A DNA stretch of 64,000 nt, from contig CM097885.1 of the NCBI GenBank assembly GCA_044892525.1, positions 32,800,001-32,864,000 of the forward strand, written 5' to 3'. The stretch's first letter is position 1, and the number at the start of each line of letters is the position of its first letter. The notes beneath the pieces are model-generated. The model had not been told where the DNA came from and ran no database searches. It worked only from the letters and a program-made list of their open reading frames with translations. Of this stretch, positions 1 to 57,799 are shown in pieces. Both the position numbers and the translations under genes were made by a program. The stretch comes from Schmidtea polychroa (taxonomy: Eukaryota).

Positions 1-80
1 TCTCTAGATGGCGTATCGTCCTCTCCCTCTCTCATTGTGATCGTTTTCTTTCGGATATTCGGTCTTTCTTGATTAATCAT
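1..80 (-). CDS. Start of a further cargo ORF running off the window (MINQERPNIRKKTITMREGEDDTPSR...)
   Basis: ATG at 80 directly after TTTATTATAG; open to the window edge; same composition as the element. Confidence 0.45.
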   Translation of the reverse strand, partial: MINQERPNIRKKTITMREGEDDTPSR

Positions 81-222
81 CTATAATAAATTTCATCATT
101 TCTTTTTGCATTTTTTCTTTTTCTAGTTTTTATGGTTTTGGTGAGTTACTTTACTTTATACAATAACTTTATAATTACTTTACATCGTTTTTACAAAATA
201 TTTACAATTTCCCTCCATCCGC

Positions 223-1646
223 CTATCGTATTTCTATTGTTAGTCCTTCCTCCGCTAGTTCGATTAGGAAGAATATAGTGTCCTTGTCTATGTAGGAACC
301 TTCATTGAACTGATATAGCTGTATAAACTCTCCTGCTCCTACCGCGGTATTAACCTCTGTAGTTGGTTTGTTCCATGCTGGACTTAATGCTCGACAGTAT
401 GTTATGTGTGTCCGTTCTCTTCCTAAGAGAGATATTTATAATTTATGTCGAAATGGCCAGACTATTAGGTCATCGAAGTCTCCTTTACAGATTTGCATAA
501 ATAAGGACATGTACCGATCTTTAAAATTTCCCTCGCCATTTGGAAACCATCTCAATTTCATCTTGTATCCATGTTTCTTGACGTAGAATGGTTTGCTCAC
601 TATCGTTGTCTGGGTTCCTTGCTTTGCTCGCTCCATTATTTCTGCTATCCCTTGAATTTTCCACATGTATGGTAATATTGGTAGTTCCTCTGTTGTCAGT
701 TCCCTTCCAGCCCATTTGGTTTGTAGTTTAGTTACTTCGACTAGTTTGTCGTCTAACTTCAACATTCTTTGTATTACGGCTTCTCTCGTAGTTTCGAAGC
801 TTTCCTGTGAACTCAGCATTTCTTTTATCATGATTTTATGTGATTTGAGTTCGTCTTTGACGTCTTCGACTGCCCTTGCCGTTAACTCTATTGCTCTCAT
901 CATCTTTTGCATGTGCTCTAATGTATTCTCTTCCACATGTTTCTTCATTTCTTCTGCTGGTAATTGTACTTTACAATCGAATGTCACCATTGGGCATTTT
1001 ATCGCTTTTCTCGTTCATATCTCCCAATGCTCTTTTAGTCTGACGTTGTTAATTTCTCCACACTCGTTTGGGCATCCCCTGTGTATTCATCGCAAATCCG
1101 TCTTTCTACTGCGTTTCGATGTTCTATTTCGATCTCTCTCCAATTAGCAGTTTCTCCGCAAAATTCACATTTCTCCGTTCGCACTTCGCATTCTTTTTTA
1201 TGTTTGGTTTTCTCTTTTCGTAAAAGCTTTACCGTACATGCTTCGCATTCCAATTCTAAATATTCGCATACGTCTGTATGGGCTCTTAACTCCTTTACTC
1301 GACCTGTCCATTCGCATGACCTTTGAGGACATCTTATTTTCACTTCTCTGATTTCTCGGTTCATTGCTCTATCCAATATCGTACCAGTGGGAACCAACTT
1401 AAATGCTTCTCCACACCCTGGACAAGTTTCTCGCTTTAGCTTGGCTAATCTTATATCACACTCTCGGCACAATCTACAACCGCATCGAGTTTGACTTGCT
1501 CCAATTAATAATCTTCTACATGCTGTATCGGCACATAATAGTCTTTCTTCGAACTCATCCGGCTTGGCTTGATATTTTCTCATCAACTCATAGTTAATCT
1601 TTTGTTCCTCTGCTTCTCTCCGGTTTTCTTCCGCTTTGTTTTGCAT
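223..1646 (-). pseudogene. TRAF-family protein (RING, TRAF zinc fingers, coiled coil, MATH), intronless and frameshifted; retroelement cargo
   Basis: RING (CADTAC...RCGCRLCREC...CPGC) and zinc fingers (CPQRSCEWTG...HTDVC) in ORF 1035-1646. MATH motifs (YMWKI, SKPFY, GYKMKL..FPNG, SLFMQICKGDFDDLIVWPF) in ORF 436-990. MATH continues in another frame (...YIDKDTIFFLIEL) to a TAG at 223. Confidence 0.85.
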
Positions 1647-1735
1647 TCTACAATGATAACTTTTTAATCTTGGAATTCTACTTGGTTATAACTCTATTTA
1701 TTTACAAGATTATTTACATTTTACTCCTTTCTCTC

Positions 1736-2191
1736 CTATACATCTACCGTCGAGTCCGCTTCTCCAGTTCCTGGTAGCCCGGTCATCCACTCGACTAAAC
1801 TGGCAATATCGTCATGTTGTCGATTTTCATGCAACCTTCTAATTTCTTCCGCTTGCCATCTGATTTGGCTTATTAACTGATTGTTATTATATTCTAGTTG
1901 CGCGATTATTTGGTGTTGTTCCTCTATTTTTGTAATGTATATTGCATTTCTATTAATACTCTCTATCAACGCCGTTTGATTTCGTACCCAATGTTCTTGA
2001 GTCTGATTTGTCAATTGGGTCATTAATTCACATTGTGCCCTCCACATGGATCCTGTTGACTGACTTGGCTGGTTTGGCACGTTCATTTCCATCATGTCCA
2101 CTGGATGCACATTCATTAGTGGCTGTTCCCCTACCTCAACAACATGTGGTATCCCATTTGGGCGTTCTTGCTCTTCCATTCTCTGGTTCAT
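1736..2191 (-). CDS. Hypothetical 151-aa Q/E-rich coiled-coil cargo protein
   Basis: Open ORF between pol and TRAF on the same strand; heptad-like C-terminal half. Confidence 0.55.
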   Translation of the reverse strand: MNQRMEEQERPNGIPHVVEVGEQPLMNVHPVDMMEMNVPNQPSQSTGSMWRAQCELMTQLTNQTQEHWVRNQTALIESINRNAIYITKIEEQHQIIAQLEYNNNQLISQIRWQAEEIRRLHENRQHDDIASLVEWMTGLPGTGEADSTVDV

Positions 2192-2338
2192 TCCTATTTA
2201 TAATATATGGTCATCATACTTGTTTTTGATTTTTCTACATATTGTTTTAGTTTACTATTTTTATTTTGTACATACTACTACTATTATTACTACTTTTATC
2301 GTTTCATTTATACATTATTTACACAACTCCTCCTCTTG

Positions 2339-5300
2339 TTAAACCAGTGTCGCCATGGGGCCGGAATGCAACGTGCGCATTCCCCCATATCTCTCGTCCG
2401 TTAGTCGGTATATATCGACTTCGTGTGCCCATTCGTTAGGTGTGGGTATTCTTGGTAGTTCCGACATCCACAATCCGCTGGATCTGGGATCCTCTATCAC
2501 CTCGTATTCTTCTAGATTCAGATTCTCTGTTGGAATGCCGTATTCAAATTTTTCCACCTTGGGCCATTTTCTTCGGTTTCTCGGTTTTTGTTTACATCTT
2601 TTGGTGGTTCTTATCCATTGAATCATTGCTAACACTATTATCGTACTTACTATCGCGCTAGTTATCCATATCATCTTTGTGATTATCGTTGTTCCATTAT
2701 TTGCTTTTTCTGTCGTTAATATTGTACTGCCTGTGGTATTCGTTTCTGGTGCCTTGATTTTCTTGAATGCTTGATGTAATCGTTCCTTCTCCTTCTCTGT
2801 TAGGTGACTGTGATTTTCTCGTTTCTCTCCCCCTTCTTGATCTTGGGGTATCCATGGTATGTTTATTAATTGGGATTTTTGTCGAGTTATTGGTTGACAT
2901 ACGCTGGTTCCTCTTCCTTTCTTAAGGATACATACTTGGTATCGCTCTTTTCGTTTTCCTGTCTCCATTTTGACGTCTGCACCTTTGTCTATTGGTGTTG
3001 TTGTACAGTCGATTATTCCCGTCTTATCCATTATACATATCCTTATGATTGGTTCTCCTTCTTGGTTTTTGACTGTAATTACCTCTTCACCTTTCTTGTT
3101 GAGGTTAATAGTTACCTGCACTTCCCGTCTTTCATCTTTAATCACTTCGTTAATCCATGCTGTTGTTGTTGTTGATTCGGTTTGGTTTTGTTCTGTTGTT
3201 GTTTTTGAACTAACTGGTTTCTTTGGCTTCTTGGTTGTTGTCCCCATTAATGGACCTTGTTTAATTGCCATACTCTTTGGTTTGTCTTTTCTTGGTGCAG
3301 CTCTTGTTCCTTTACATACTACTATCCCTTGTGTTCCTGCGCATACCACAGTAGGGGTATTTGGTTTGACCTCTCCCCAGAAGAATTTATGGTCTTGTGT
3401 CATATCAGTTACTATGCATATATCTCTGTCTTCTCTGATGCATACATGTGTAATTGATCGACTCTCTTTATCTTCTATTTCGATACCTTCTTCCAAAATG
3501 TTAAGTTGAAAATGTACTCCGGTTTCATTGGCTCTTTCTAGTTCCATTTCTTCTGTTGTTATGTCTTTGCAAATGTCATAATCTCCACATAGCCTGGGGT
3601 CTCTTTTTAGGCTGCTGAAAATCTTTCCTTTTGTTATCGTTCTGAAATCACAGCTTACTCCTGTTCCTTCCATTAGTTGTACACATATTCCGACGGCGTT
3701 TCTGTCGTAATCGCTGATTTTTATCATAAATACTTCGCCTTCTTGAGAAGCTTCTCTTACGATTCTCATATGTTTTGTTTCCGTTAAACAGATAGATGTT
3801 AATATTATAAATATTCTTTGTAGTAGGATTGGCTGGATTTGATTTCGAAACACTATGCTGTGTAGTGGGGACTTTCGCTTTTTGTTTTCTGTTTTGTCGA
3901 ATCCTTGATCTTCACCTCGACCTTGGTCATCTTCATCTTCTTCTAACTCTTCATTCTCATCCGTTGTTTCTCCGCCTTCTGGATTCTGTTCTTTGTCGTT
4001 TCCCTCTGGGTTGTTGTCGTTATCCCCCATCTTTTCGTCGTCGTCGTCATCGTCATTCCTTCCACCCGGGGTTTTTCCAAAAATATCGTTCTCGACATTT
4101 GTCGCTTTGATCATCTCCTCGTATTTTTTAATTATCTCTTTCTTGTCGTTGTGGATACTTTCTCGTTCTTGTTTGTTTCCTTGATATTTCCGTTGTTTCC
4201 GGTGCCATTCCCACACTAGTACTTCTAGTTGCTTTTTCATCGCATGTGCTTTTGTGCATTTCCACCAATTACCTGTCAATTCTGTTCTATTTCTTTGTAA
4301 TATTGCTTTAATGGTTTTTGGCATTGGTGGTCTTGAGTATATGGCGCTTCTTAGTACGATATTTTCGTTGTTTTGGAATTGATTTATGTCAATTACTTCC
4401 GCTTTTAATTCATTTTGTTTCCATTTGATCAACATTGCTGCGGTTCTGTCTAAGTTTCCTCTGATGGCTTTCAGAATTGGTTCAATGCTCTGACCCAACA
4501 CCTCAGCTTCCTCAGTTGTTGCATTTCCTGTGATAAAGTTTATTATACTAGGTCTTTTTGACCTGACGGCGTAACGTAAAATGGTCCGTTGTTTGTTGTC
4601 TTTTTCTTTCAACGTGGATCCCGTTCTCAATAATTCTCTGAGTACTTCTCTTGACGCGCCTGTTGCTATGGCTTTCATCAGTGGAGTTTTCCCTTTACTG
4701 TTTTTGACGTTTGTCGATTGTTTGCAGTTTTCCATTATTCGTATGATCTCTAATGCTCGTTTTTCCTGTCCTGCTTTGACTGCATGATGGATTGGCCAGT
4801 TATTACTCAAATCACTTGTTAGGAACATGATTGGTAATCTCCGGATTAGTTCATATATTTGAACCGGTACTTGTAATCCTTCAGCATATCTTCGTCCTTT
4901 CGCATATCTTTCTGCTACTATCATTAGTTTGCCTAATACTTGGTATTTATTGGTTATATCGGCCCATTCTGGTACAATTTCTCGTGCTATTTTTACTGTC
5001 ATATTCCATGTTGCTTGACTCCTTGCTATTGCGTCAGCTTTGCTTTCTACTTCGGTTCCTTTATTGGCGCTGCTGCTTGTTTCTCCCTTCAACATGAATA
5101 TTTGTCTTGTCTGTGATCTAGATAATCTACCGCTTACTTCTGGTTCTGTTGTGACATTTGTTTGTGATCTCGTGATTATCTTCCTTGTTTCTGGGTCTTT
5201 AGTGGCAGTTTTCGCTACTGCTTTACATCGACATGTATTCACATATATGGGTCTAATTAGTAGATTGTTAACCAACTTTACTCGAGCGTTGTTCTCGTTT

Positions 5301-7186
5301 ACATAGATGATTTCATACGGTCCTCTGCCATTACGTTGTAATTTCTTTGCCGTTCCTGGGATTAATTCGGGTGTTTCTATAATAACCCAATCTCCAACTT
5401 TAAATTGATGGTCTTGTACGTTCTTCTTTTTGTCATGCAATTCCTTATAACTTTCTTGGTTGAATCGGATGTTCATCCCTGCGGTTTTCCATATTTCTTG
5501 CATTCTTTCTTTGAACTTTGTCACATAATCATCTATCTCCATATATTGTGAGATTGGCGGTTGGTATTCGAGATCCATCGGCATGTTGCATTCCCTTCCG
5601 TACATGAGTTTAAACGGACTCATTTTCGTTGCTGAGTGTATTGACATTCGGTAAGCCATTAGACACAACTTAATATATTCATCCCAGTCCTTTTCATGTT
5701 TGCTTACATAATTTGACATCATGTCTATCAATATGCCGTTGAATCTTTCTGTCTGACCATTCGTTTGCGGGTGGTATGGCGAGGTTCTCAATTTGGCAAT
5801 TCTGAAATAATTTGTCACTTCATTTATTATCTCGCTCATGAAATTAGTTCCTTGGTCAGTTAGGATTTGTTTTGGGGTTCCATATCTGCAGCAGATCTCT
5901 TCCACTAATATCCTTGCAACCGTTCGTGCTTTTTGGTCCGGCATCGCAAATGCTTCAGGGAACTTTGTCAGATAATCCGTTATCACCAATATATACACAT
6001 TTCCGCTGTTGGTTTCTAGTAGTGGTCCAACCACATCCATTGCAATCATTGTCATCGGTTCTGGCGGTATCGGCATTAGTTTCAATGGCGGCTTTAGTTT
6101 ACTGCCCGTTGTTTTCCTAGTTGCGCATATCAAACAGTTCTTTATCCATTCTTTCACGTCATCGCTCATATTTGGCCAATAATATTTCTGTTTAAGCCTT
6201 GCTTCGGTTTTCTTGGCTGACATATGTCCACCCAATTTACCGTCATGGTATTGAATCATAATTTCTTTCCGTCTACTTTCCGGTAAACACATCAATCGTT
6301 TGTCGCCATCCATTACCAATAGCCATCCCTTCTCGATCGTATATCTGTGACGATTTTTCTCCATATGTTCTTTTAATCGATCATCGTTGTTGAATGTTTT
6401 CATATCGTTTTTATCCAGGAATTCGATTATTAGTTTTAATTCGCTATCTTCTTTTTGTTCATTCTTTAGGTTGGTAAAATCAATATCTTCCACGATTATC
6501 ATGCATATTCGCCTGACGTCATGATCCATGAGTTCTTCGAACACAAATCTTGATAAACAACCCGCATTCGCGTTTGCTTTTCCTGACTTGAACTTGATGT
6601 ATGGGGAATATTCTTGTAATTGCATTGCCCATCTCATTAATCGACTAGATGCTTCTTTATGTTGGCCCAACCAAACTAGAGGTTGGTGATCCGTAGTAAT
6701 AATTATCTCGTGTCCCCACAATAAATATTTAAAATGTTTTATCGCCTGAATTATTGCTAAGGCTTCTCTTTCCGTGACTGAGTAATTTTTCTCGTGCTTT
6801 TTGAACGTCTTACTATAATATCCGATGACTCTTTCCCGTCTCTCCTCGTCCCATTGTCCTAGCACAGCTCCTGATGCATGTCCACTTGCATCGGTTGCTA
6901 ATAGAAAAGGCTTTTTGAAATCTGGATGTATTAAAATAGGTGAGGCTATTAATTTATCTCTTAGCGATTCGAACGCTATTTGCTGTTCTCTTTCCCACAG
7001 GAATGGGGTATTTTTTTTCGTTAGTTCCTGAATTGGTTTTGCGATAGTTGCATAATATTTGATGAACTTGCGGTAGTATCCGCATAATCCCAGAAATTCT
7101 TGTATCTGAGTCACGGTCTTTGGTATCGGACAATTCTTTATCTTTTCAACGTTTCTCGGGTCTGGTTCCTTTCCTTTTGCCGACAC
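2339..7186 (-). CDS. Pol C-terminal part: RT connection, RNase H, integrase, ankyrin repeats, then a Cys-repeat ectodomain with TM anchor
   Basis: FLGLCGYYRKFI; RNase H (LATDASG, YSVTEREALA, TDHQPL); integrase HHCC (HDGKLGGH...CLIC) and DDE (MDVVGP, TDQGTNF, GQTERFN); ankyrin motifs (GKTPLMKA, RTILRYAV); TM MIWITSAIVSTIIVLAMIQW. Confidence 0.92.
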   Translation of the reverse strand: MSAKGKEPDPRNVEKIKNCPIPKTVTQIQEFLGLCGYYRKFIKYYATIAKPIQELTKKNTPFLWEREQQIAFESLRDKLIASPILIHPDFKKPFLLATDASGHASGAVLGQWDEERRERVIGYYSKTFKKHEKNYSVTEREALAIIQAIKHFKYLLWGHEIIITTDHQPLVWLGQHKEASSRLMRWAMQLQEYSPYIKFKSGKANANAGCLSRFVFEELMDHDVRRICMIIVEDIDFTNLKNEQKEDSELKLIIEFLDKNDMKTFNNDDRLKEHMEKNRHRYTIEKGWLLVMDGDKRLMCLPESRRKEIMIQYHDGKLGGHMSAKKTEARLKQKYYWPNMSDDVKEWIKNCLICATRKTTGSKLKPPLKLMPIPPEPMTMIAMDVVGPLLETNSGNVYILVITDYLTKFPEAFAMPDQKARTVARILVEEICCRYGTPKQILTDQGTNFMSEIINEVTNYFRIAKLRTSPYHPQTNGQTERFNGILIDMMSNYVSKHEKDWDEYIKLCLMAYRMSIHSATKMSPFKLMYGRECNMPMDLEYQPPISQYMEIDDYVTKFKERMQEIWKTAGMNIRFNQESYKELHDKKKNVQDHQFKVGDWVIIETPELIPGTAKKLQRNGRGPYEIIYVNENNARVKLVNNLLIRPIYVNTCRCKAVAKTATKDPETRKIITRSQTNVTTEPEVSGRLSRSQTRQIFMLKGETSSSANKGTEVESKADAIARSQATWNMTVKIAREIVPEWADITNKYQVLGKLMIVAERYAKGRRYAEGLQVPVQIYELIRRLPIMFLTSDLSNNWPIHHAVKAGQEKRALEIIRIMENCKQSTNVKNSKGKTPLMKAIATGASREVLRELLRTGSTLKEKDNKQRTILRYAVRSKRPSIINFITGNATTEEAEVLGQSIEPILKAIRGNLDRTAAMLIKWKQNELKAEVIDINQFQNNENIVLRSAIYSRPPMPKTIKAILQRNRTELTGNWWKCTKAHAMKKQLEVLVWEWHRKQRKYQGNKQERESIHNDKKEIIKKYEEMIKATNVENDIFGKTPGGRNDDDDDDEKMGDNDNNPEGNDKEQNPEGGETTDENEELEEDEDDQGRGEDQGFDKTENKKRKSPLHSIVFRNQIQPILLQRIFIILTSICLTETKHMRIVREASQEGEVFMIKISDYDRNAVGICVQLMEGTGVSCDFRTITKGKIFSSLKRDPRLCGDYDICKDITTEEMELERANETGVHFQLNILEEGIEIEDKESRSITHVCIREDRDICIVTDMTQDHKFFWGEVKPNTPTVVCAGTQGIVVCKGTRAAPRKDKPKSMAIKQGPLMGTTTKKPKKPVSSKTTTEQNQTESTTTTAWINEVIKDERREVQVTINLNKKGEEVITVKNQEGEPIIRICIMDKTGIIDCTTTPIDKGADVKMETGKRKERYQVCILKKGRGTSVCQPITRQKSQLINIPWIPQDQEGGEKRENHSHLTEKEKERLHQAFKKIKAPETNTTGSTILTTEKANNGTTIITKMIWITSAIVSTIIVLAMIQWIRTTKRCKQKPRNRRKWPKVEKFEYGIPTENLNLEEYEVIEDPRSSGLWMSELPRIPTPNEWAHEVDIYRLTDERYGGMRTLHSGPMATLV

Positions 7187-8209
7187 GATATGTCCTAAAA
7201 ATGTGACTCTCTCCGTTGCCCAGTCACATTTGTTTCCATTGTTTCAGTCTTACGAATACATTCCTGATGTCGATTAAGTGTTGCTCGAAAGTACCTGAAT
7301 ATATTAGCAGATCATCAATATACACCATACATTGTTTGATTCCGTGTGTCACAAAGTTCATACATCTTTGAAACGAAGCAGGTGCGTTTGTTAACCAAAT
7401 GGCATCTTTTTAAACTGATATAAATCTTTTCCAATGGTAAAGGCTGTCTTTTCTCTATCTTCCTCTTTAACTTTAATTTGCCAGTATCCACTCTTTAGAT
7501 CTAAAGATGTAAAGTATGCTGCTCCATGCAACATCTGTAACATTTAGTTTATATCTGGCAGTGGATATGTATCCCTTTTTGTTACTGCATTCAACCTCCG
7601 ATAATCAATGCAAAATCTCTGTGTGCCGTCTTTCTTTTTTACCATTACCACTGGAAATTGCCATGGTGAGCAACTAGGTTCTATTACACCGGCATCCAAC
7701 ATCTTTTGTACTTCTTCCTCTGCCACCGTTTTTTGTGTTTCGGCTAATCGATATGGTCTCAAGGTTATGGGTGTCTCATCTGTTAGTGGTATAATGTGTT
7801 GAGTTACATCGCTGGTACCCAAATCTAAATCTGAAGTCGCAAAAATGTCTTTAAACTCAATCACCAGTTCTCTGAGTTGTTTCTTTTCTTCTTTGTTTAG
7901 GAGTTCGCTATCGATGGTCCACAATTCTTTTTCATCTGCTCCTTCACTTTTTATCTCTGGCAGTTCAATGTTCATCATTGGTGTGAGTTTTCCAAGTCTG
8001 TCGTTTTCGTAGATTACTTTATCTTCCTTATCAAAATTGGTGATGTTGATGGGTATCTCGTTATCCTCATTTATACTGACGATCTCTCTTGCCAATGGTA
8101 GCTCTCTTCGTTTCTCAAATTTTTGACTTGGTTCGAATATCATATCTACTTTGGCTTCATTATCAACCTTGACATAGCATATTGTCTGGGTACGTGCTGG
8201 TATTATCAT
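7187..8209 (-). pseudogene. Reverse transcriptase of the giant element, frameshifted
   Basis: [38 protein letters not shown]; downstream FTSLDLKSGYWQ and VYIDDLL (~7311-7326) lie in shifted frames. Confidence 0.9.
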
Positions 8210-9288
8210 TTTTTATAGCATCTCACTTGTGTTCTCATTGTGCATATCTGTCCCGTTTTATCTTTTAATTTCATGAAACTCAAATCAATCACAATTTCTT
8301 TCAACAATTCCGGAATTACATCTATTCCAATTATACATGATACGCTTAGTTGTCTAATGACTGCGAGGTACGTTGTAACTTTAACCCCTTTGTATTCGAT
8401 CGTTGACCATACTCTTCCTACTACCGCTATGGATTGTTTGCTGCATGTTATTACATCCATGGTTGTCTCTTTAATGCATGGCCATAGTCTACCTGGTAGC
8501 ATATTCATATTTATTGCTGAGATATTTGGTCCGGTATCGATCATTGCATCCATCTCTATTCCGTTTACTTCGACCGTGATAGTTAATGATGGTCCGGCTG
8601 GTGTTTGTAATACCTCAATCGTTCTTGTCTCAACTTCTTGTTTCACACTTTTAGCTGGCTTCATTATCGTTGGGTCCATTGCTGCCCAATTTGGTTCATA
8701 AGCTGTTGGATAAATGTTTGGTACTGGTAATCTTCCGGTTCCCATTCTTATCCGTTCTCTCACTGTTCCCGGTCGTCGCATTGGTCCATTAGTTGGTGCC
8801 TGTAAATATGGTGATCCCCATGGTTTCATTTTTTCGTTTTCCCAAGTGGCTGTATTTTTGTTTATTAACATTGCTCCTCCTTGGTTATTATCATCGTCGT
8901 CGAAATCATCATTGTCGTTGTCACTGTCATCGTCTCGTCTGAGGTTCATCCACTTTTTCCACTTCCCTGTTCTTTTCGCTTTCTCTTGAGTTCTTTCTGC
9001 CTCTAATCTCATTATCACTTTGAACTTACGTCCGACTTCTTCGTCTGTCTCTTTCATTTGCGTTAATATTTTCAACAATCTTTTTATTCGATAAATATCC
9101 TTTGAGTGTCCGTGCAACACCATTGTTTTTGCTAAGAACGGTAAAAATCCAATTGCAAGTTTCCAATTTACTTTTCTCTCGCGTTTGTAAATGTCAAAAC
9201 ATGCTAGCATCTGAGTTAGTATCACTCTGACTATTTGTATTATCAGAATAATTCCGAGTATTCCTGCCATCATTTGGCCAAATACCAA
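8206..9288 (-). CDS. Envelope TM anchor and tail fused to retropepsin aspartic protease (in frame with 9298-11586)
   Basis: Hydrophobic [18 protein letters not shown]; protease [13 protein letters not shown] and CIIGIDVI; separated from the upstream ORF only by one TAG in the same frame. Confidence 0.85.
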
Positions 9289-9297
9289 AAATCGACC

Positions 9298-11586
9298 CTA
9301 CATGGCCTTCATCATATTTGCTGTTGCCTCTTGATAGTGACTTGGTGATAATAATAGCTCGTAATTCGGGCTCTCCCCATAATTATTTCCTCCAGAAATA
9401 GTCACTATATTTGACAAGATCGCTTGTCTTTGTGCTGGGAATAACATGTGGGCTCTTGCCGATTCGAGATCTTTCGGTGAATATAATCCACTCTGGAATA
9501 CGTCTATCGGCTTGAACTCTAATTCTGTTGTTAGTTCCGTCAATCCGAATTTCTTGGGTGTTGGTGCGATTGTTTTACTTGGAAATTGAACCCATTGTCC
9601 ATCCTCTTTTTCATACATTGGTCCATATGCATTACTACAATTAAACAGGTTTGGTTGAAACCCTACCGGGTTCATTATCCTGGTGACTGCTTGCACAAAT
9701 CTGGGTTTGCCTTCGTGAATAATTTCGAGTTCGTTTGCACACTTATCCCTTGGTATTGTAGGGTTTTCCGGCAATCTTGCAATTATCTTTTTGCATTGGT
9801 AGGTGTACATTACTTCGCCCACGATTCGTCCGAAATATCCTTCCTGTAATGGTAGTAATGGAATTGCTTTATCTGGATTTGTAATTGCCATTGCTAATTT
9901 TGTTCTCAATATTTCTTTGTTGAGCAGGCAATCGTTTCTTAACAGATCATGATAGACTTTTTCCGTAGATGTTAATCCTCTGTGATATAAGAAATCCATC
10001 TTATTATTCGCATATAAATATAATTTGACATCCTTTTCGCTTAGTCTTCCGACCGCATTTGCTAGGGTTCTCTGCGACAAGTAGATTCCTTTGTAATTGG
10101 TGCTGATCACCACCTCATCGCATTTACACACCACTTTGTTCTTTATGAACCTCATTCCTATTCCATCGTCTTTGGAGATTATCGCTGTGGGTGTCACTTC
10201 CGATTCCAATTTCGATGTTATTACGTCTTCTCTGAATCCTTTTCTTGCTCTCAACTCTTCCATCGCTCGTTTTTCTGCTTCTCCTTTTGGTTCACTGTAC
10301 ACTTTCCCTTGGATTTCTTCGAATATTGCTGTCTTGAGTAACATTAGTCGACATACTTTCTGATCCGCATGGTATACCAGAGTTGACATTCCGGTTGAAC
10401 ATGATCGGTCTGATGCGAGACAGCTTGGGTATTTCTTCATTGCTTGTGTGTCAGGGTCGAAATAACCTTGATACCTTTCTAATTTAGCTTCGTAGTTTTC
10501 TATTACGACCACTCCACTAACCAGTTGTCCGTTCAGCGTGTATGTTCCTGTTTCACATGTTCCGTCTCCTTTGGTTATTCTGCCTGCCGTATACACGCGA
10601 GTCGTTTTTATTTTCCCTGGTTCTGCAGCAATTTCAATCCCTTGCCTTAGGTGGATTCTCCCCGATCGGAATCCTTCCTCGCATTCCTCTCTTGATAGTA
10701 ATATTACTGTCGATTCCAATCCTGGTTCTATGATTGTTGAGTGGGAGGATGAACCACAGTGATGCGCGAATATCTTCCTGGTTACCGTACACTCTTGGAC
10801 CATGGTTTTGATGAAATCTGCTTCTTGATATACATTATACGAGACTGATGCCATAACTGTTTGTAGTTTTCTTGGATTTGCCGCTTTACAGTCTTCCGTA
10901 TCCTTTAATGAATATTTCTCATTGATTTTTATGTTGTCACAGTCGTATACCGCAAATGACTCGGTTCCTTTGATACACATCATCCATATCAATATCGTGG
11001 TTATTATGGCATTCATTCCCTTTCGGCTTGCTCTTGGGTCGTTCATATTGATTGTCCCTTCGAATTCAGTTAGCAAATCGCGTAACTTTGCTTGCATCAT
11101 TTCCGTTTGATCCTTTTTCCCAGTTGATTCGATGAAGTTTCTCCATCCCCCTTGTTCAAGTATATATGGTTCTATTGATCGTTTGATTATTTCTGTTACC
11201 GTGAATTCATAACCAGTTGCGTTATATTTTGGCATTCGTTTTTTATATTGACCACTAACGTTATACACCAAATATGCTAATCCCACTAAATATCGATTTT
11301 GGTCCTCTGATCTGCTTAATAGATGTTCCACAATTAATCTGAGTTCCACAGGATCTTTTAACGTTAATCGAATTTTATTATCCATGATTTTCATTATTAT
11401 CGGTTTCAATACCGCCCATAATTGTTTGACTTCGGTCGGTATATTATCCTTCCTCATTACTCTTTTCACATCTGGATTTGCTAACGCTAACATGTTAGCT
11501 AATAAGTCGTTTATCCATCGTGTCCCTTGTTCCCGGACGCTTGTTTTCACTTTGACTTGTTTTACTAATGCACTTAGTTTATCCAT
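9298..11586 (-). CDS. Bcl-2-like domain, internal signal peptide and chuvirus-like (class III-type) envelope glycoprotein
   Basis: BH2-like YILEQGGWRNF; signal MNAIITTILIWMMCIKGTES then FAVYDC; Cys-rich ectodomain with NKMDFLY...NDCLLNKEIL...GYFGRIVGEVMYTYQC, typical of chuviral and retrotransposon-captured glycoproteins. Confidence 0.75.
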   Translation of the reverse strand: MDKLSALVKQVKVKTSVREQGTRWINDLLANMLALANPDVKRVMRKDNIPTEVKQLWAVLKPIIMKIMDNKIRLTLKDPVELRLIVEHLLSRSEDQNRYLVGLAYLVYNVSGQYKKRMPKYNATGYEFTVTEIIKRSIEPYILEQGGWRNFIESTGKKDQTEMMQAKLRDLLTEFEGTINMNDPRASRKGMNAIITTILIWMMCIKGTESFAVYDCDNIKINEKYSLKDTEDCKAANPRKLQTVMASVSYNVYQEADFIKTMVQECTVTRKIFAHHCGSSSHSTIIEPGLESTVILLSREECEEGFRSGRIHLRQGIEIAAEPGKIKTTRVYTAGRITKGDGTCETGTYTLNGQLVSGVVVIENYEAKLERYQGYFDPDTQAMKKYPSCLASDRSCSTGMSTLVYHADQKVCRLMLLKTAIFEEIQGKVYSEPKGEAEKRAMEELRARKGFREDVITSKLESEVTPTAIISKDDGIGMRFIKNKVVCKCDEVVISTNYKGIYLSQRTLANAVGRLSEKDVKLYLYANNKMDFLYHRGLTSTEKVYHDLLRNDCLLNKEILRTKLAMAITNPDKAIPLLPLQEGYFGRIVGEVMYTYQCKKIIARLPENPTIPRDKCANELEIIHEGKPRFVQAVTRIMNPVGFQPNLFNCSNAYGPMYEKEDGQWVQFPSKTIAPTPKKFGLTELTTELEFKPIDVFQSGLYSPKDLESARAHMLFPAQRQAILSNIVTISGGNNYGESPNYELLLSPSHYQEATANMMKAM

Positions 11587-11594
11587 TTTAGTTT

Positions 11595-12380
11595 TTACCT
11601 GTCCATTTGCGCCTGAATTTTGGATTTTGGTTCTACCTCTGCTTTATCTGTTTTTGGTCTTCCTCTTGTTCGTCGATCCATAGCTGTTCCGGTTTCTTTC
11701 CGTTTTGGCGGATTGTAAGTTGTGTCTTTTGATGTGGTCGCTCCTGGATCTACTCTCCAGTTGCTCCATTCATTGGTTGTAGTTACTTCTTTATTGTCAC
11801 CTCTTTCTACATTATCTAAATCCGTCTCGGCTTCTGTCGTTTCCACTGGTTGTCTTTGCGCGCATACAAATCCATCTAGATCATCGGTTGTCGGTTCACC
11901 TTCGTCGATAAATAGATCTCCTGATTGCGATGCTCTCATAATCTCGTCTGCTTCTACTATCTCTTGTATTTCGTCTAGTATTTCGTCTTCTCCCGTCGTT
12001 TCGATCGTTACTTCACTAACCGCATTTGGAACTTCCGGTGTGTCCAGACTTCCTGGTTGTTGCGTGGATGATTTTTGCTTTATCTCTCTTCTCCTTAATT
12101 CTCTACCTGCAATTTTACTCACTGTTAATCTGTTCACAATTTCTCCTTGGAGTGGTGTCACACCAATTTCAATATCGTCGTCTAATGATCGTCCCTCGTG
12201 TTGTAAGTGGAATGGGAGTTCATAAGGTATTCTCTTTTTAACTTCTCTGACCTTAGCTGTCGTGTAGAATTCCTTTTCCATTGGTTCAAAATCTGGCAGG
12301 AATATTTTTAGTTGATATTTCTCGGGTGAGTTTTCGGCCCACTCTTGTTGTTTCCATTTCCGGATGATTTCACCAAATTT
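11595..12380 (-). CDS. Ubiquitin-like domain plus acidic linker, probably the frameshifted upstream part of the polyprotein
   Basis: YQLKIFLP...TTAKVREVKKRI...LQHEGRSLDDD resembles a beta-grasp UBL. The ORF-track start at 12413 lies in the neighbouring Maverick remnant. Confidence 0.5.
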   Translation of the reverse strand, partial: KFGEIIRKWKQQEWAENSPEKYQLKIFLPDFEPMEKEFYTTAKVREVKKRIPYELPFHLQHEGRSLDDDIEIGVTPLQGEIVNRLTVSKIAGRELRRREIKQKSSTQQPGSLDTPEVPNAVSEVTIETTGEDEILDEIQEIVEADEIMRASQSGDLFIDEGEPTTDDLDGFVCAQRQPVETTEAETDLDNVERGDNKEVTTTNEWSNWRVDPGATTSKDTTYNPPKRKETGTAMDRRTRGRPKTDKAEVEPKSKIQAQMDR

Positions 12381-14223
12381 TTCCAGATATCCAAGTTGGG
12401 GTTCTATATCCATGTCATTTTACACAGTATTGCCTATATTTCCCATCATCTTTGGTTTTTAAATGAAATCAATGACTTGTAGTTTTTGCTCGTAGCATTT
12501 TCCACTGACTTCATTATTTTCATGATCTGCAATAAAGTACAATACCAGGTTCTGGCTAGTATCGATTTCTGAGATTTGAAATACTTCATCGCTCCAATTA
12601 TTGCCAAAATTCTCGATGAATGGAAAAGGCTTTAGGCATTTTCATGGTTTAGTTTTCTTGTTGTAATATCCCATTATAAATATTATTTGTTGAATAAATA
12701 TCAATCACTTACAATCCATTTAACCCTCGATGTGGAGAATAATTGTAGCTATAAATCGTTTTTGGTAAGACATTTATTCAAGTTCTATTTCCTTGATATA
12801 AGAAAAACCTTAAAACGATCAAAAACAATTAAAAACTAAGTTAATTTTAATTACCCAAATCCGTTTTTAAATTACGAGGCTTTGTTTGGAAATGAAACCA
12901 ATGGTTTTTCCGCTAACAGATTTTGAGTTATGGGAAGATAGCAAACATTTTTCTCTTTCACATCTTTGATGAGGATGCCTAATTTAACTGCAACTTTTCA
13001 TGGACTCCCATTGAAATAGTTTTTGGATACGTCTTTGGAAAATGTTTCCTTCATTATTACAACAAGATGTCAAAATGTTTAAATCTAAATTATTTTTATC
13101 GTGTATTGAACCTTAATGGTGAAATTGAGCTTATTGCAGATAGTATTATTGGAATTAATGCTCCCAAGAACCCACCATTTTGTTAATATATTATCTTTCT
13201 CATTAGTCGTAGATTTTTTATATTGACTAACGATAAAAGTACATTTTACATTTTTGCGAAACAAGTCTTTTTAGATCTACCAATATTTACATTACCATGA
13301 ACTACATTAACAATAACTTGAAGTAAATCATCAATGACTAACGAAGAAAAGTCTATAAAATATTCATTCTTTTTTTTATTTAGAGCCTTGACTAAGGCAA
13401 TAAAAAGCGGTAGACTGCGTTCTAATTTCATTTTTAATACAAATTTTAATTATTTGTTGTGTTTATATTTTAATCCATTTTTTATTTTTCACTACTTTTC
13501 TACTCTTTTTTATTACTTTACGTTTAGTACCACTTTTCTTTGTAACTTTTTTCTTTAGAGTTTTCTTCCTTTGAACAATTACTTTTTTAAACGACATTTT
13601 AATGAATTATTTTTACGATTAAAATTTTGTTTATCAATTGTTAAATCTTTCTCGTTGAAAATATCGGTTCGAATAAGTAAATCATCAGAACGTAATGAGT
13701 AAAATTAAAAAATAAATATCCTTGGGGATTTTTGTAGGATCTTAAAATTAATCAATTAAAAAATTGTCTATCATTAGAATACGCCCGTCTAACCAGAAAA
13801 TCAATAATAGTAACATTTTGGGGTTTTTTAAAAATAATCAAGTACTGAACATTCAAGTTTCAAGTTCTTTGACCTCCCTTTTGAAATAAGTTTTGAGTTA
13901 TAAAATACCTGCAACTCATAAATGTCAAGCAATTTTTGTAACTAAACTATTAAAATATTTTTCTTTATTTGCTTCGTGATACAAATCATCGATAATAATA
14001 ACATCTCCTTGACGTAATATTGATGACCAATTTTTATCAAATCTTTTAATTATAGTCATTTTTAATTTACAAAAATGGTCTTGTGTATCACCATTCTCAT
14101 TATCAGATTCCCTATGCCAATATATTTTATTGAATTTGATTTGAACAACTCTGATTATAACAATATTTTGCCGCTACCACTTGATCCAACAATTTGATAT
14201 ACCACATCATTTCTTAATTCCAT
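12380..14223 (-). mobile_element. Decayed Maverick/Polinton remnant: packaging ATPase and integrase/chromodomain pseudogenes
   Basis: ATG at 14223 gives MELRNDVVYQIVGSSGSGK (Walker A), then VIIIDDL, ITQNLFQKG, NLNVQYLIIFK. Integrase C-terminus NWSDEVFQI...LYFIADHENNEVSGKCYEQKLQ (~12480-12600). Chromo-like QYCVK*HGY...TWI (~12385-12435). Many stops and frameshifts. Confidence 0.75.
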
Positions 14224-14417
14224 TTTAATTAATTAAATAATTATTTATATTTTCTGAAATACTGTGTTTTAATTGATTAAAAAAATATTTGAATATGCTG
14301 AGTAATATTAATTATAATGGTCGATATTTAATACATAATATGAAATTCCCCATTGAAAACTACAGCAAGTTGTATATCGAACAGGAAAGTATCCGATCAT
14401 ATTTTTTATTTCAGGAA

Positions 14418-14533
14418 TGTTAGACGCAATTAAATTCAAGTCTTCTTCAAGCATTTATTTTTATAACAACTTCAAAATTGAGCCGTTTACTAGAGTATTT
14501 AAACACCGAGGCGTGATAATTATTAATATTAAT
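14418..14533 (-). repeat. 3' LTR, partial (U3 side and PPT deleted)
   Basis: Matches 18882-18996 with one indel, then joins directly to integrase C-terminal sequence. Confidence 0.8.
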
Positions 14534-14534
14534 A

Positions 14535-17450
14535 TTCGTTTTATTACTGTGTATAGTCCTTCATATCTCTCATGATCTTTGTTTCTAATTTCTTGTTTCA
14601 CCAATACTTTGTCCCCCACTTCTAAGTTCCTAGTTGTGCCAATTTCTTTCGCTTGCTGTCCTTTAGCCTCTAATTTCCGCATGATTTCATTTCTATCCAC
14701 TTCATTATTACTATGCCATTGCGATCTGTTAATCTTTCTTCCAAATATAATTTCTGCTGGACTCACTCCAGTAGTTTTTTGAGCTGTCGCATTTAAAACG
14801 TATTCTATATCAGGTATTTATTCTGCCCAGCTTTTTTTAACTCCTTCTCTGAGTGACGCGTTAATATAGTCTCTTATAGTACGAAATTGTCTTTCAATTA
14901 CACCATTAGTATTATGATGATACGGACTCGAAAATATGAACTCCATTCCTGCTGCCTTTGCTAGTTCTTTAATGCTATTTGCTTCGAAATTCTTTCCACA
15001 ATCAACATGTAGTTCCTTAGGGGCTCCAAATTTCAATATCCAATTATTTAACAAAACTGCTTTTATTGTATTTTCATCTTGCTTTCTAATAGAAGTTAGA
15101 GATATGTGTTTACTGCAATGATCGATTATTGCACAAATATATTTTTCTCCTCTGAAGGTTTCTCTTAATGTATATTTTCTCCATAGGTTCTGAAGCTTGA
15201 ATTACTTGGGTTTTTTCTTTTGACTTTGTAGTTAAAACTTTGTTTTTCTGGCATGCTTCACATATTGAAATAGTCTCTTTTACTTCATTTAGCAAATCTT
15301 CCATATCAAAATTGTTCCTAATATATTTCATAACTTTTTCTACTCCCGCGTGGCATAATAATAAATGTGTTTCCTTAATCATTTCTCGTCTTTTTGTTTC
15401 TGGTATCCATATTTTGTTTTGATTGGTATAGATAATATTTCCTCTTAATATATATTTATTATTTTTCCTTTCATTTATTTGATCTTTCATATCTTGTATT
15501 TCTGCATTATCTCTTTGCCATTCATTTCCATTATTTTCGGTCATCAATGTTAACAATCTAGTTTTTAATCGCCCTGATTTGAGGTTATCATGGTCCATCA
15601 AACATTGTACACATTTTCCGCATGTATTTCTAGACAGCATATCTGCATTCGTATGCGCCGTACCTTTTCTGAACTCCATTTTTATGTCTAAACTGCTCAA
15701 GTAATTTATCCACGTTTGGAACTGTGCTGTTATAGGCTTCTTTGTCGTTAACATAAAAGTTATTGCTTTATGATCAGTGCGCAAAACAAACCGTTTACCG
15801 TATAAATAATGGTTGAAATGGCGACAGAAATAATACATAGCCAAAAGCTCTTTTCGTGTTACACAATATCCTCTTTCATGGCTACTCATAGCATGGGGTC
15901 CATATGCAATAACGTGTTCATGCCCCATTTCATCTCTTTGTGATAATACAGCTCCAATTGTATCAAAGCTTGCGTCTGTATCTAATATGAATTCTTTCTT
16001 GAAATCTGGAAATACGAGAATTGGCGCTGTAGTCAACGCCATTTTCATTTCATCGAAAGCTTTCTCACATTCCTCAGTCCAGATTATTTTTTCACTATTG
16101 CTTCCACATATGCTTTCTAGAGCTCTTGATTTTGTTGCATATTCCTTAATAAATCTCCGATAATAGTTACATATACCTAAAAAGCTTCTCAAATTCTTTA
16201 TACACTTAGGCCTCTGAAATGATTTAATAGCCTCAATTTTACTTTGATCTGTCCGAATCCCCTGACTGTTAATAATGTGCCCTAAAAACTTTACTTCACT
16301 CTTTAATAACTGACATTTTTCTGGGTTGATTCTCAATTTAGCTTCCCGTATTTTCTCTAGAACCTTTCCAAACACATTGTAATGTTCTTCAATTGTCCTT
16401 GTAAAAATTAAAATATCGTCTAAATACACCATAACTCCTTCTTTCCATAGATCTTTCAATATTTTTGTCATTAATTCTTGGAATGTACCCGGTGCCGCCG
16501 CAATGCCAAAAGGCATTCTATTAAAACAAAATTGCCCTCCTTTAGTAGAAAATGCTGTCTTTTCTTGCGATTCTATGTCCAATTTCACTTGATAATAAGC
16601 GTTCTCAAGGTCTATAGAACTAAAGTACTTAGATCCATGTAATGTATCTAGAATTTCTTCTACATTCGGCATAAGAAAAGCTTGTCTTTCAGTTATCTTA
16701 TTAACTGTCTAAAATCTAAACAAAGTCTGATATCTTTTTTGTCTTTTTTCCACACTCATACTAACGGCGTATTCCAAGGTGAATTACATCTTCTTATGAT
16801 ATCATTATTTTCTAAATTTTTTATAGCAGCATTTATTTTCTCCTCTAAATTGATGGGTAATCTTCTGGGTTTTATCATAATTGACCCTTCTTTGTGATGA
16901 TTTTATGTGCAATTAAATCAGTACATCCGATATCCCAGTTATTAGCCATAAAAACACTTTTATTGTTTTTAACAATCTCTAACAGTCTTTTATTTTCGTT
17001 TAATCTTAGAATTTCTATTGCTTTTTGACATCTCTCGTTATCTGTAATCTTTTCCCCAAATCTAGCTTCTATTTCACACACAAATTCATTATATCCTTCT
17101 TCATTTTGCTTGATGTAGTTTAATTCAATTCCAAACTCTTTCTGCAATTCCACTCCGCCTATTATATCTAGAACAATATTTTTAACTATTATAAATGTTA
17201 TTTTTCTTTCCATATTACCAATTCTAACATCAATATATATTTTTCCGATTGTCTCTAATATACTATCATTTGCTCATCTCAACATCTCATCTGATTTTAT
17301 GATTTTCACATTCACTAATTTGTCCACAACTGCTTCTGCCATTACATTTACTCTTGCTCCTGTATCTAGTAAGCATTCCATTCTATAGCCCTGAATTTCA
17401 AGAGTTGTACTCGGTCTACCTTGCATTTTGTCATAACTCAGCATCTGTCG
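14535..17450 (-). pseudogene. pol: Pol (protease, RT, RNase H, integrase) with stops and frameshifts
   Basis: ECLLDTGA (~17360-17380), YLDDILI, LDTDAS, TDHKA, HLLLCHAG...CEAC, VDCGKNF, IERQFRT; split over several ORFs. Confidence 0.9.
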
Positions 17451-17641
17451 TTTCCATTCATCTTTAGTGAAATTATTTTGCTCCTCTTATATTTCATTAA
17501 ACCACCCAATTTCATTTTTCTCTAATTTATCTTCTACATTTTTAATAAATTTATAAACTTTTTCATATACTATTTTATTATTATATTCTGCTTCTTTAAT
17601 TTCATTATACTCTTCTTGATTCTTAGGATTATTATTATTAT

Positions 17642-17736
17642 TTATCGATCAGCATTAAAATAACTATAACATTTAAAATTATTTAAAGGAAACTTTTTAA
17701 AATTACAAATTTTATTACATAAAGGTTCTACATTAC

Positions 17737-17788
<52 letters not shown>

Positions 17789-18859
17789 ATTATTTACATT
17801 ATTAAAATTATTATGACCAATATTTACATCAATATCAAAATTACCTAGTATTGCTCCGATCATTGCCTCCCGTGTCGAAGCATGTACTTTTGGGTGATGA
17901 ATATCCTCATATTTGTCTTCTGCATCATCTGAATACTCAAGTGGCATCGTCTCATCATTAGCTTCAATTGCTGCAATTGTTCTTCCTGGATTGTTGATCT
18001 TTTGTTGATAGCTTGTGGTTCGATGGGCATAATAATTATTGTTTCTCATGTTTGAATTAGTTTGAAACTTCCTTCTTTCCAAATTTGTATCGCAGTCAAT
18101 CTCCTTATGTCCACGTAAGTGACATCTCTGGCATTGAATCGTTGAACATTCTCGCCGTACGTGGCCTTCAACTCCGCATGCAAAACACGTCATTTTCTTT
18201 TTCATTTGGCATTCTCGACTCACATGACCAGTTTTCTTGCATGTCCAGCATTCCAATTGTCGGTTACTGACGTTTCGTTGCTTGAAATTATTATTTCCGT
18301 TTACCATTCCTCTTTGAGCAACATCTCTGTAACTTCTGTAGTTTTGAACAACCGGTGAAGTCTTCACAACATTAATATGGCCCATAATTTTGTTTACCTT
18401 TTCTAATTTCTTTATTGTCGCTTTTATTTCTTCTAATGTTTTCAAATCTTTCATCTCGATCTCTTTTTTAACTTCTCGACCTCTTACACAGTTTGTAAGC
18501 AGGCATTTTTCTATTTCTTCTTCATCCCATTTGTGCGCTATTAATTTCTTTGTCATCTTTTTAATTTTCTCTATAAAAGTTTTGGCTGAATCTGATCCTT
18601 GTTCATAACTCAAAGCTTCTTTTAGATCATCCATTAATGATGTCGGTTTCGAAAATGCACATCGAAGTTTCTCTTCATTAGTTTTTCCTTCGGCTGCTTC
18701 ATAATCTTCCATTAGCGATCTTTCAAGTAATGTTGTAGTTAATATTACTTGCATCCTAATTGTTGTTTTGGTCGCGCCAAAAAACCTTTGAGAATCCTTG
18801 ATAAAATTTTCTAAATCATCGCCTTTGTGAAATTTCTCAGGTAATAGTCTGCTTATCAA
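17642..18859 (-). CDS. gag: Gag with CCHC zinc knuckles
   Basis: CWTCKKTGHVSREC, CFACGVEGHVRREC, CQRCHLRGHKEIDC. Confidence 0.9.
17743..17784. repeat. (TA)n microsatellite within the Gypsy gag-pol junction
   Basis: Directly visible. Confidence 0.9.
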
Positions 18860-18870
18860 TAATCCGTGGT

Positions 18871-18881
18871 CGTGGTCGCCA
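18871..18881 (-). promoter_or_regulatory. Primer binding site TGGCGACCACG (probably tRNA-Arg)
   Basis: Begins TGG immediately after the 5' LTR on the minus strand. The tRNA identity is inferred. Confidence 0.7.
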
Positions 18882-19091
18882 TGTTAGACGCAATTAAATT
18901 CAAGTCTTCTTCAAGCATTTATTTTTATAACAACTTCAAAATTGAGCCGTTTACTAAGTATTTAAACACCGAGGCGTGATAATTATTAATATTAATGTAA
19001 TTACTGGTCATACATTTAATTGATTTAATTTAATATAATTTAATATAATATGATATAATTTAATATAGAATTTAAATATAAAATTTTAACA
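18882..19091 (-). repeat. 5' LTR (210 bp)
   Basis: Starts TGTTAG and ends TTAACA; shares ~116 bp with 14418-14533. Confidence 0.8.
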
Positions 19092-42330: not shown

Positions 42331-42420
42331 AATATTTCCATTGGGCATGCGTCTGTCGTTTTAGGGTTAATTAATCAGCTAAGTAAAACTTTAAAAAATA
42401 AATCTTTTAGGGACTTCGTA

Positions 42421-43373
42421 AGTAGTGTGGTTATATACCCAACCAAAACAGCCCCCCAACAAAAACATGCCTCCAAATCACTTAAGCTATTAGAAAAACA
42501 ACATAAAACTTATACTTTTATAGTATTTTAACCCTATATTTTGAAAACAACCACCCTTAATGACTCTAACTGTTTTAATCTTTAAAGCCTCAAACTCAAA
42601 AGCTTCAAACTAAAAAGAGAATAGAAAAGAAAATGGCATTATGAAAAAGTTAGAGGGCTATTTGATCTTTATCAGATTATTGATTTTAAATTATATAAAT
42701 TAAAAAATAAATGAAAAATAGTAAAACTGCTCTGAGGGGACAGTGGTATTTTTTTTTTTTTTTTTTTTCACTGTCCCCTCAACAGTTTTTTTTGATCCGG
42801 ATCATTTTTTTTATTTATCAACCTCTTTCGTTTATCGAATCTCTTCCAATATACAAGCTGGCCAGACTCATACATCAGAATCAATCCGATAATAGCAGCA
42901 CACCTTATTATTCGCTTCTCGCTCGAATACGATTTCATCGGCGTTTTAAGTGTGCTGCTCGAAAGTACAAATGAATTCGAAAGCGAATTCGAAAGAGGTC
43001 CGAAAACAACTGAGAAATAAATGTGCACATTAAAGAATCGATCCGGGGGTGTTCGAAAGACAGGTGGCGATAATTACCGGTTCGCCACCATCACCCGTTT
43101 CAATATTTTTTTTTTCATATTTATGTTTAAAAAATAATTAATTAATAAAAAAATAAAATAAAATAAAATAAATAAAATAAAATATACAAGTACTTTATAA
43201 ATATAAGATACCCACACTATTTTCAATATTATTTTCAAATTTTTAATATTATTTTATGTTGAAAAAAAACTAACCTCAGATGTGATTTGAACCACTATCC
43301 ATTTGAACCACTGTGCCAGTCTATTCCCACTGCGCCATCAAGGTTTGAATTTTTGTCATTTTTTTAATTTTTA
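42421..43373 (+). repeat. Left TIR
   Basis: Reverse complement of 56122-57066. Confidence 0.92.
43262..43345 (-). ncRNA. Putative Pol III small RNA, copy 1
   Basis: A box TGGCGCAGTGG, B box GGTTCAAATC, terminal stem, T8. Confidence 0.6.
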
Positions 43374-57066: not shown

Positions 57067-57799
57067 TTCGTATCCCTCAAAAAATATTATCATTTTTAAA
57101 ATTTGCAATTTATTTATTCATTGTCATTCAACAAAATAGTCATTATTTTTATGCAAAAAAAATTATTAAAAAAAATTAAGAAAAATTGAATATTTCCACG
57201 TTAAATTATTATCTCTTGATATAATAAATTATAAATATTATTAATTTAAAAATAAAATTAATTAATGCAAAGCCTATTTCAAAAGAATTAAGATAAAAAA
57301 GAAACAGTTAAATGTAATTACAGCGTAGCGAAAAGGCATTGCTAAAAACAATCAAAACTAATTTGAACGAAAATAATATGTTAAATCTGGATTTAACATT
57401 TAATATTTAGAAATTTAAGATAAATTAAAAATTATTTGATAAAACAACATTTATATTTCAAAGACATTATTATCCATAATAAATCTGTAAGTTTTTTTGA
57501 AAATGAAAAATCAAAAAGAAATTCATTTTTAAATGTTTTATAATTTTATATTATTTGATCTTCATTTTTGACAATATAATTGTTTTATTTAATCTGTGTA
57601 AAATTGAAATTACATTATTATTTATAAAAAAATATTGAAAAATATTATAAGAACTTTTTTTTTCAAATTTCACCACTGATTTCTTTTCCATTGACATTGT
57701 ATTTATTAAAAAGCTTGACTATGAATCAGTAAATATATCGATGTTCACGAATTTTCGACACTGCCTTTATTTCGGTAAAAGATATTTTACTAAGATTTT

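Follow-up and report, generated by a model that had tools for sequence, protein, structure and literature searches.

Drosophila errantiviruses (gypsy, ZAM, Idefix) encode an F-type (class I) envelope glycoprotein (Env) in a separate open reading frame (ORF) 3' of pol and spread from cell to cell within the animal. For Burro elements, the Burro section of PMC6431247 (Arkhipova & Yushenova 2019) describes Ubi/SUMO-like, BCL2 and ankyrin domains together with an env that lies in frame between gag and pol. GAG-ENV-POL elements with a gB-type Env are reported from Nematoda, Bryozoa and Platyhelminthes, six of them in Schmidtea mediterranea, in PMC13524379 (Chary & Hayashi), which finds these elements not monophyletic and calls it unclear how far such Envs mediate infectivity. 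BURRO1 is described as expressed and PIWI-controlled in PMC8532177, a host-beneficial IAP role of Burro1 is credited to Lee et al. 2026 as cited in PMC13465017, and Burro is mentioned in PMC11410931. Here we compare with these systems a 64-kb stretch of S. polychroa contig CM097885.1 (positions 32800001-32864000, hereafter the window), within a 781-Mb genome that was searched for further copies. On its minus strand the window holds a Burro-type remnant, hereafter the window copy, for which all coordinates are given as window positions. Pfam matches and comparison with other copies identify it as the 3' portion of a Burro-type Ty3/Gypsy long terminal repeat (LTR) element; it is very probably a dead, 5'-truncated giant of the GAG-ENV-POL (env-bearing) type, with sister copies that continue to multiply in the genome.

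The Burro-type family of Schmidtea polychroa

The preliminary description of this locus had reported a giant Gypsy-type polyprotein with a viral fusion glycoprotein upstream of the protease, and Pfam bears this out: the ORF at 11643-9301 matches the Monjiviricetes fusion glycoprotein PF24664 (E=3e-57, best stretch ending at model position 535), followed by aspartyl protease, RNase H (RH), integrase (IN) and Ank_2, the last three all within ORF 7243-2342. The marks of Ty3/Gypsy elements (Metaviridae) are present in the order protease (PR), reverse transcriptase (RT), RH and IN, in TG...CA LTRs and in a short target duplication. In a genome search with the Env anchor and protease region the best 112 of 2703 candidates were scored, all of them 93-100% identical, and the resulting counts over-represent intact copies because only these were scored. 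An open frame of exactly 4791 codons (stop to stop) was found in 54 of the 112 scored matches and one of at least 4780 codons in 62, so that the continuous ORF expected of other copies is indeed present, while frames of at least 1144 codons run across the site of a TAG codon of the window copy in 109. With the second membrane protein as query (150 of 461 candidates scored), the family comprises at least 150 copies at 91% identity or more.

Five long copies span 34.2-35.6 kb and carry LTRs of 4.3-5.0 kb that start with TG, end with CA, are 99.9-100% identical within each of the five copies and are flanked by 4-bp target duplications in all five. ORF1 of three copies differs by 1.7-3.5% over 10 kb; the family has transposed very recently, because LTR pairs are identical or nearly so and copies are only this far apart. 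The order along ORF1 is Gag zinc knuckles, MATH, putative ubiquitin-like (UBL)/Bcl-2-like region, class III Env, PR, RT, RH, IN, ankyrin and a second membrane protein; behind it, within the LTRs, come six accessory ORFs, among them TRAF-like and BIR-RING frames. The Gag region of the long copies has three CCHC knuckles (zf-CCHC, 2e-11) ahead of MATH (3e-29). Contigs of four sequencing runs cover ORF1 in 30, 22, 28 and 30 of 30 bins; three presumed-RNA runs contained no splice-like joints, their RNA type being guessed and their contigs those of a high-copy repeat that say nothing on transcription. Searching the genome with an Env of 45% identity (best 94 scored among 2502 candidates) returned only this same family and no other Burro family.

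The long copies have several further features. At L019:2136-2615 and L022:538-1014 they have a 160-amino-acid (aa) RING ORF between the 5' LTR and ORF1 (PF13920, 3e-12) and an ORF of about 150-180 aa inside the LTR, and at least two LTR sequence types occur that are about 80% alike in part. A site that starts 8 bases past the 5' LTR end (L031:9543-9572; likewise L032 and L034) resembles the gammaretrovirus tRNA-Pro primer site. The last accessory ORF (341 aa, L023:7585-8607; ratio of nonsynonymous to synonymous substitution rates, dN/dS, 0.26) begins with a signal-like stretch, carries a strong anchor (residues 260-278) and is, as predicted from hydropathy, a third membrane protein.

The kinship with Burro proposed in the preliminary description agrees with the architecture given in PMC6431247. 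As described there, Burro1-4/GYPSM1 of S. mediterranea share with the window family a size above 30 kb, an internal region of about 25 kb, one ORF of about 4,800 aa (4,873 aa in Burro, 4791 codons stop to stop here), accessory ORFs, and the series three CCHC knuckles, MATH, in-frame env, PR, RT, RH, IN and ankyrin, with BIR in addition. The Ubi-like and BCL2-like domains that follow MATH in Burro correspond here to regions with weak support. The Schmidtea GAG-ENV-POL elements of PMC13524379 likewise match in order, in their gB-type Env and in a coding span of 14.5-18 kb, and by eye the window Env is visibly closest to Smed_errantivirus_6 in the supplement of that paper, with long identical runs. 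That element is given there with copy number 1, against the at least 150 copies counted here, and the table in PMC13524379 lists neither LTR nor primer site for the Schmidtea elements, unlike the 4.3-5.0 kb LTRs of the window family. The env-in-frame layout of Burro is thus already published, in PMC6431247 and PMC13524379, and the arrangement is not new as had been supposed. Compared with Drosophila errantiviruses, both groups are env-bearing Ty3/Gypsy elements; the window Env is of class III, in frame and upstream of PR.

The window copy itself has lost its 5' end and is damaged. Similarity to the long copies starts abruptly at 12383 in all five, and upstream of this breakpoint the long copies continue with the three CCHC knuckles and MATH in the same frame as ORF1; 5' LTR, Gag and MATH are therefore gone from the window copy, and no 5' half of a Burro copy was found elsewhere in the 64-kb window. 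On the other side it passes the left window edge for about 8.2 kb more, through the BIR-RING ORF and three further ORFs, to a diverged, shorter 3' LTR that ends near contig position 32791800. The extent 2339-12380 given earlier thus describes a real part of a larger element, and the env-pro-pol polyprotein proposed for it is one polyprotein but of gag-env-pro-pol type, Gag being merely lost from this copy. Against three natural long-frame stretches, ORF1 shows frameshifts near 11603, 8215, 7395 and 7232 and stops at 9300-9298 and 7546-7544; between Env and protease the TAG at 9298 is, as described, the single interruption, but four frameshifts and a second stop occur elsewhere. Synonymous divergence from active copies (dS) is about 0.1-0.37 (pairwise Nei-Gojobori), and by these distances the window copy is a member of an older branch than the active copies. 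The region 1-12400 (GC 38-41%) is richer in GC than the AT-rich rest of the window and strand-biased, with minus-strand coding.

The domain order given in the preliminary description holds from Env through its anchor, PR, RT, RH, IN and ankyrin to the second membrane protein, while the UBL and Bcl-2-like domains are weakly supported. As preserved, ORF1 starts with a putative ubiquitin-like domain and acidic linker (11604-12383), 96% identical in aa sequence to active copies and ending at the frameshift near 11603, followed by a possible Bcl-2-like helical domain (11011-11586) for which phmmer against PDB gave E=0.66 at best over a 30-residue stretch, with Bcl-xL as all 35 listed matches. Downstream of Env lie a retropepsin protease with a DTG motif (8305-8580; PF13975/PF00077, aspartyl protease E=5e-4), followed by the frameshift near 8215, and the PR-RT spacer with RT (7227-8212), which comparison with natural copies shows to be hit by the stop 7546-7544 and the frameshifts near 7395 and 7232; the RT of an unbroken natural copy matches RVT_1 (E=3e-35) and has a YIDD motif. 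RH (6608-6997; PF17917 3e-38, PF17919 1e-34), integrase zinc finger and core (5768-6283; H2C2 PF17921 2e-21, rve PF00665 2e-12) and ankyrin repeats (4529-4792; PF12796, E=1e-8) complete the series ahead of the second membrane protein (2339-3838).

Fold and conservation of Env

A signal-peptide-like hydrophobic segment (10957-11016, core about 11010-10972, Kyte-Doolittle peak 2.47 at 11010 in a 13-residue window), at which cleavage would be expected, precedes an ectodomain of 552 aa with 15 Cys (9301-10956), assigned by PF24664 and predicted structure to the class III gB/chuvirus-G-type fusion glycoproteins. The TAG at 9298-9300 follows, which comparison with natural copies marks as damage private to the window copy; past it PF24664 resumes in the same frame (model positions 543-579, E=2e-4) over the transmembrane anchor (9217-9273, Kyte-Doolittle 2.53). 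An AlphaFold2 (AF2) monomer model had a mean predicted local distance difference test (pLDDT) score of 91.6, a predicted template modelling (pTM) score of 0.72 and a 48-residue central helix. With Foldseek, all 37 listed PDB rows were herpesvirus gB (best E=2.7e-14, template modelling (TM) scores 0.25-0.47), and chuvirus-like G proteins led in BFVD (E=7.5e-37; TM 0.60-0.72 for the best four). VIA-align placed herpes simplex virus gB first (a modest Z=9.5, root-mean-square deviation 8.3, 422 aligned) and class III proteins in all of its first ten rows, and in a profile search all 39 matches were gB (best E=7e-4). Three structure methods and the profile search agree, and on its modelled fold Env is a class III fusion glycoprotein, in keeping with the likeness to chuvirus G and herpes gB that had been anticipated. 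PMC6431247 had linked Burro env to gypsy Env, baculovirus and paramyxovirus proteins while noting mononegavirus matches. The class III family of this Env (PF24664) also includes the G of chuviruses and other Monjiviricetes, such as that of Tacheng Tick Virus 4, and BEL/Pao elements bearing a chuvirus G occur in mosquitoes (Dezordi 2020, as cited in PMC13524379); unlike in chuviruses and these elements, the chuvirus-type G is here an internal segment of a Gypsy polyprotein.

In the alignment from which the AF2 model was built (122 sequences, made up of the query plus 121 of 150 listed homologs), Env cysteines common to viral G proteins are nearly invariant. Pairwise Nei-Gojobori comparison of the window copy with active copies, on small counts, gave dN/dS of 0.07 for the Env ectodomain, 0.07-0.08 for the RT/PR spacer and 0.02-0.03 for integrase, besides 0.08-0.09 for the UBL/linker, 0.04-0.06 for the Bcl-2-like region, 0.09-0.12 for ankyrin, 0.21-0.28 for the second membrane protein and 0.09-0.34 for accessory ORFs. 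Env is thus under strong purifying selection, close to that on the RT/PR spacer and with dN/dS above integrase. Of the 13 long matches scanned among distant relatives (Env identity 28-43%), 10 encode Env and a downstream protease as a single protein, and five of these 10 also have RT, so that the Env-protease fusion is old; the next-best homologs are stand-alone chuvirus-like glycoproteins of about 650-700 aa.

Several of the relatives have features of their own. P0007 (HBK71150.1), whose env-PR-RT-IN polyprotein of 2627 aa is recorded under a Flavobacteriaceae metagenome-assembled genome, is probably animal DNA in a bacterial bin; P0003, P0005, P0006 and P0014 have two or three protease-like domains, and in P0136 a glycoprotein of this family is fused to a C-type lectin-like domain.

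The unbroken copies also bear on whether Env belongs to the element at all. That Env is instead an independent piece of viral sequence, or an insertion nested in frame by chance, could be argued from the stop between ectodomain and downstream frame in the window copy and from the stand-alone glycoproteins among its homologs. The stop is private to this copy, however, 109 of the 112 scored matches being open across it; no repeats or ends flank env, relatives share the Env-protease fusion, and env and pol have diverged evenly from the active copies. We consider such an origin scarcely credible and reject it on the natural long-frame copies and the missing flanking ends, as the preliminary description had expected of an env without ends of its own. 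It is also very unlikely, at somewhat better odds, that the family stands apart from Burro as a new lineage and reached this layout by convergence. A quick-search RT-RH tree (54 rows; 53 of 117 matches kept, namely seven env-bearing ones, a small Gypsy at 14417-18956 and the 45 closest others; midpoint root, no Burro references) grouped the window element with P0003, P0007, P0011 and P0157 (SH-aLRT 95) and required three changes of the env-in-frame label, which together with the non-monophyly of GAG-ENV-POL elements in PMC13524379 leaves room for convergence. Size, LTR scale, ORF length, the three CCHC knuckles, the order of MATH, putative UBL and BCL2-like regions, env and PR, ankyrin and BIR nevertheless match Burro1/GYPSM1, and by eye Env shares long identical runs with that of Smed_errantivirus_6.

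The second membrane protein and the role of Env

The protein at the ORF1 end (stop 2341-2339) has, by hydropathy, a signal-like segment (3838-3782) and an anchor (2674-2618) followed by a cytosolic tail; its ectodomain of about 370 aa contains Cys, Thr-rich stretches and five N-glycan sequons. No homologs were found among 3863 candidates of similar length, 4897 longer ones, Pfam to E=5 and Atlas, there was no internal repeat, and blastp against the tails of P0003, P0007 and P0015 gave E values of 0.06 or worse. The position, on the other hand, seems to be conserved as a second membrane-protein slot among env-bearing relatives with long tails, judging from predicted segments in a survey of 123 integrase-matching proteins 900 aa or longer, five of which also matched Env by blastp. 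Four of these five have tails of at least 350 residues, all four with two hydrophobic segments and three with the preset spacing of 150-550, which P0157 misses at 142; of the 118 without an Env match, ten have such tails and one passes the preset spacing. P0175, env-bearing by Pfam but under the blastp cut-off and hence counted among the latter, has a short tail. The relatives' tails read as signal, ectodomain, anchor and tail and do not align to that of the window copy; numbers are small, and these relatives are not independent because three of the four share one RT clade with the window element. The Burro section of PMC6431247 does not mention a second C-terminal membrane protein, nor was one found in the Burro literature consulted, although other Burro papers or supplements may already describe it.

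The order of the four hydrophobic segments yields a coherent topology. The polyprotein might be threaded through the endoplasmic reticulum membrane like that of a flavivirus or alphavirus, the first internal signal placing the Env ectodomain in the lumen and the Env anchor returning PR-RT-RH-IN-ANK to the cytosol, after which the second signal and anchor would yield another type I glycoprotein. The luminal N-termini of both glycoproteins would be released by signal peptidase, and the cytosolic parts cleaved by the protease of the element; Env-bearing particles could then bud and pass from cell to cell within one animal, as Drosophila errantiviruses do, while the Bcl-2-like, IAP, TRAF/MATH and ankyrin modules may damp host-cell death and signalling. 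On this scheme we offer the speculative and rather doubtful proposal that elements of the Burro type are active, retrovirus-like agents with an envelope whose two glycoproteins derive from a single polyprotein, namely a gB-type fusogen that is conserved and a rapidly changing type I protein at the C-terminus that serves as attachment or trigger partner and determines which cells are entered, much as herpes gD or gH-gL stands beside gB.

A number of points weigh against parts of this picture. Burro membership is judged from architecture and from a comparison by eye. Pfam found neither retrotrans_gag nor dUTPase in the element, where a PR-RT spacer without a Pfam match takes the place in which Burro has a dUTPase-like domain by HHpred (PMC6431247). 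The Bcl-2-like region had no Pfam and no usable Atlas match, the UBL region no Pfam match and only unrelated PDB matches, and in a profile test swamped by protease and RT matches neither domain appeared in the top 60 of 241. The signal peptides are called by hydropathy alone, the Env ectodomain contains no furin-like R-X-K/R-R site, and a 1:1 Gag:Env:Pol ratio with Gag tethered ahead of a signal sequence would be awkward for particle assembly. Protein products, particles and infection are predictions from the sequence.

An alternative for the same element is that Env no longer serves entry, transposition being intracellular and the glycoprotein being kept for anchoring assembly, for blocking related elements or for a fusion useful to the host. 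The unclear role of such Envs in infectivity (PMC13524379) and the host-beneficial role of Burro1 via IAP (as cited in PMC13465017) would suit it; the ectodomain, however, is full length, well folded in the model, nearly invariant in its cysteines and held at a dN/dS of 0.07, and it has been retained across lineages at 28-43% identity. We regard loss of the entry function as possible though unlikely.

Accessory frames, neighbouring sequences and significance

Past ORF1 the window copy retains, on the same strand, a 153-aa accessory ORF without a Pfam match (1736-2197), open in four of the five long copies at a 150-aa cut-off and with a dN/dS of 0.09-0.10, a TRAF-like ORF with RING-like, TRAF zinc finger and MATH domains by Pfam (226-1685), and the start of the BIR-RING (IAP-like) ORF (1-80; ORF L013:9580-8513, PF00653 2e-18). 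The TRAF-like ORF, a 487-aa frame in four of the five long copies, is interrupted in the window copy by a frameshift and two stops (breaks near 1077, 1017 and 438).

Degraded pieces at 12420-14200 adjoin the Burro truncation point; to our eye they are presumably Polinton/Maverick-like (integrase C-terminus-like 12641-12462, Walker-A-like near 14190), for which Pfam gave no support. The small unrelated Gypsy at 14417-18956 has an RT-RH ORF (16708-15110; 36.5% to the Burro RT-RH) and an integrase piece (15201-14818) and is flanked by identical 76-bp direct repeats (14417-14492 and 18881-18956). Inverted repeats of about 930 bp (42402-43327 and 56168-57085), 98-100% complementary and 13 kb apart, are likely those of a DNA transposon with long terminal inverted repeats.

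As the headline architecture is in print, little is added here on layout. What is added is a structural test of the class III assignment, purifying selection on Env, a very recent burst of intact copies, the full element boundaries and the second membrane-protein slot. If the second protein is an entry partner, Burro-type elements would be a rare case of LTR retroelements with a two-glycoprotein system.

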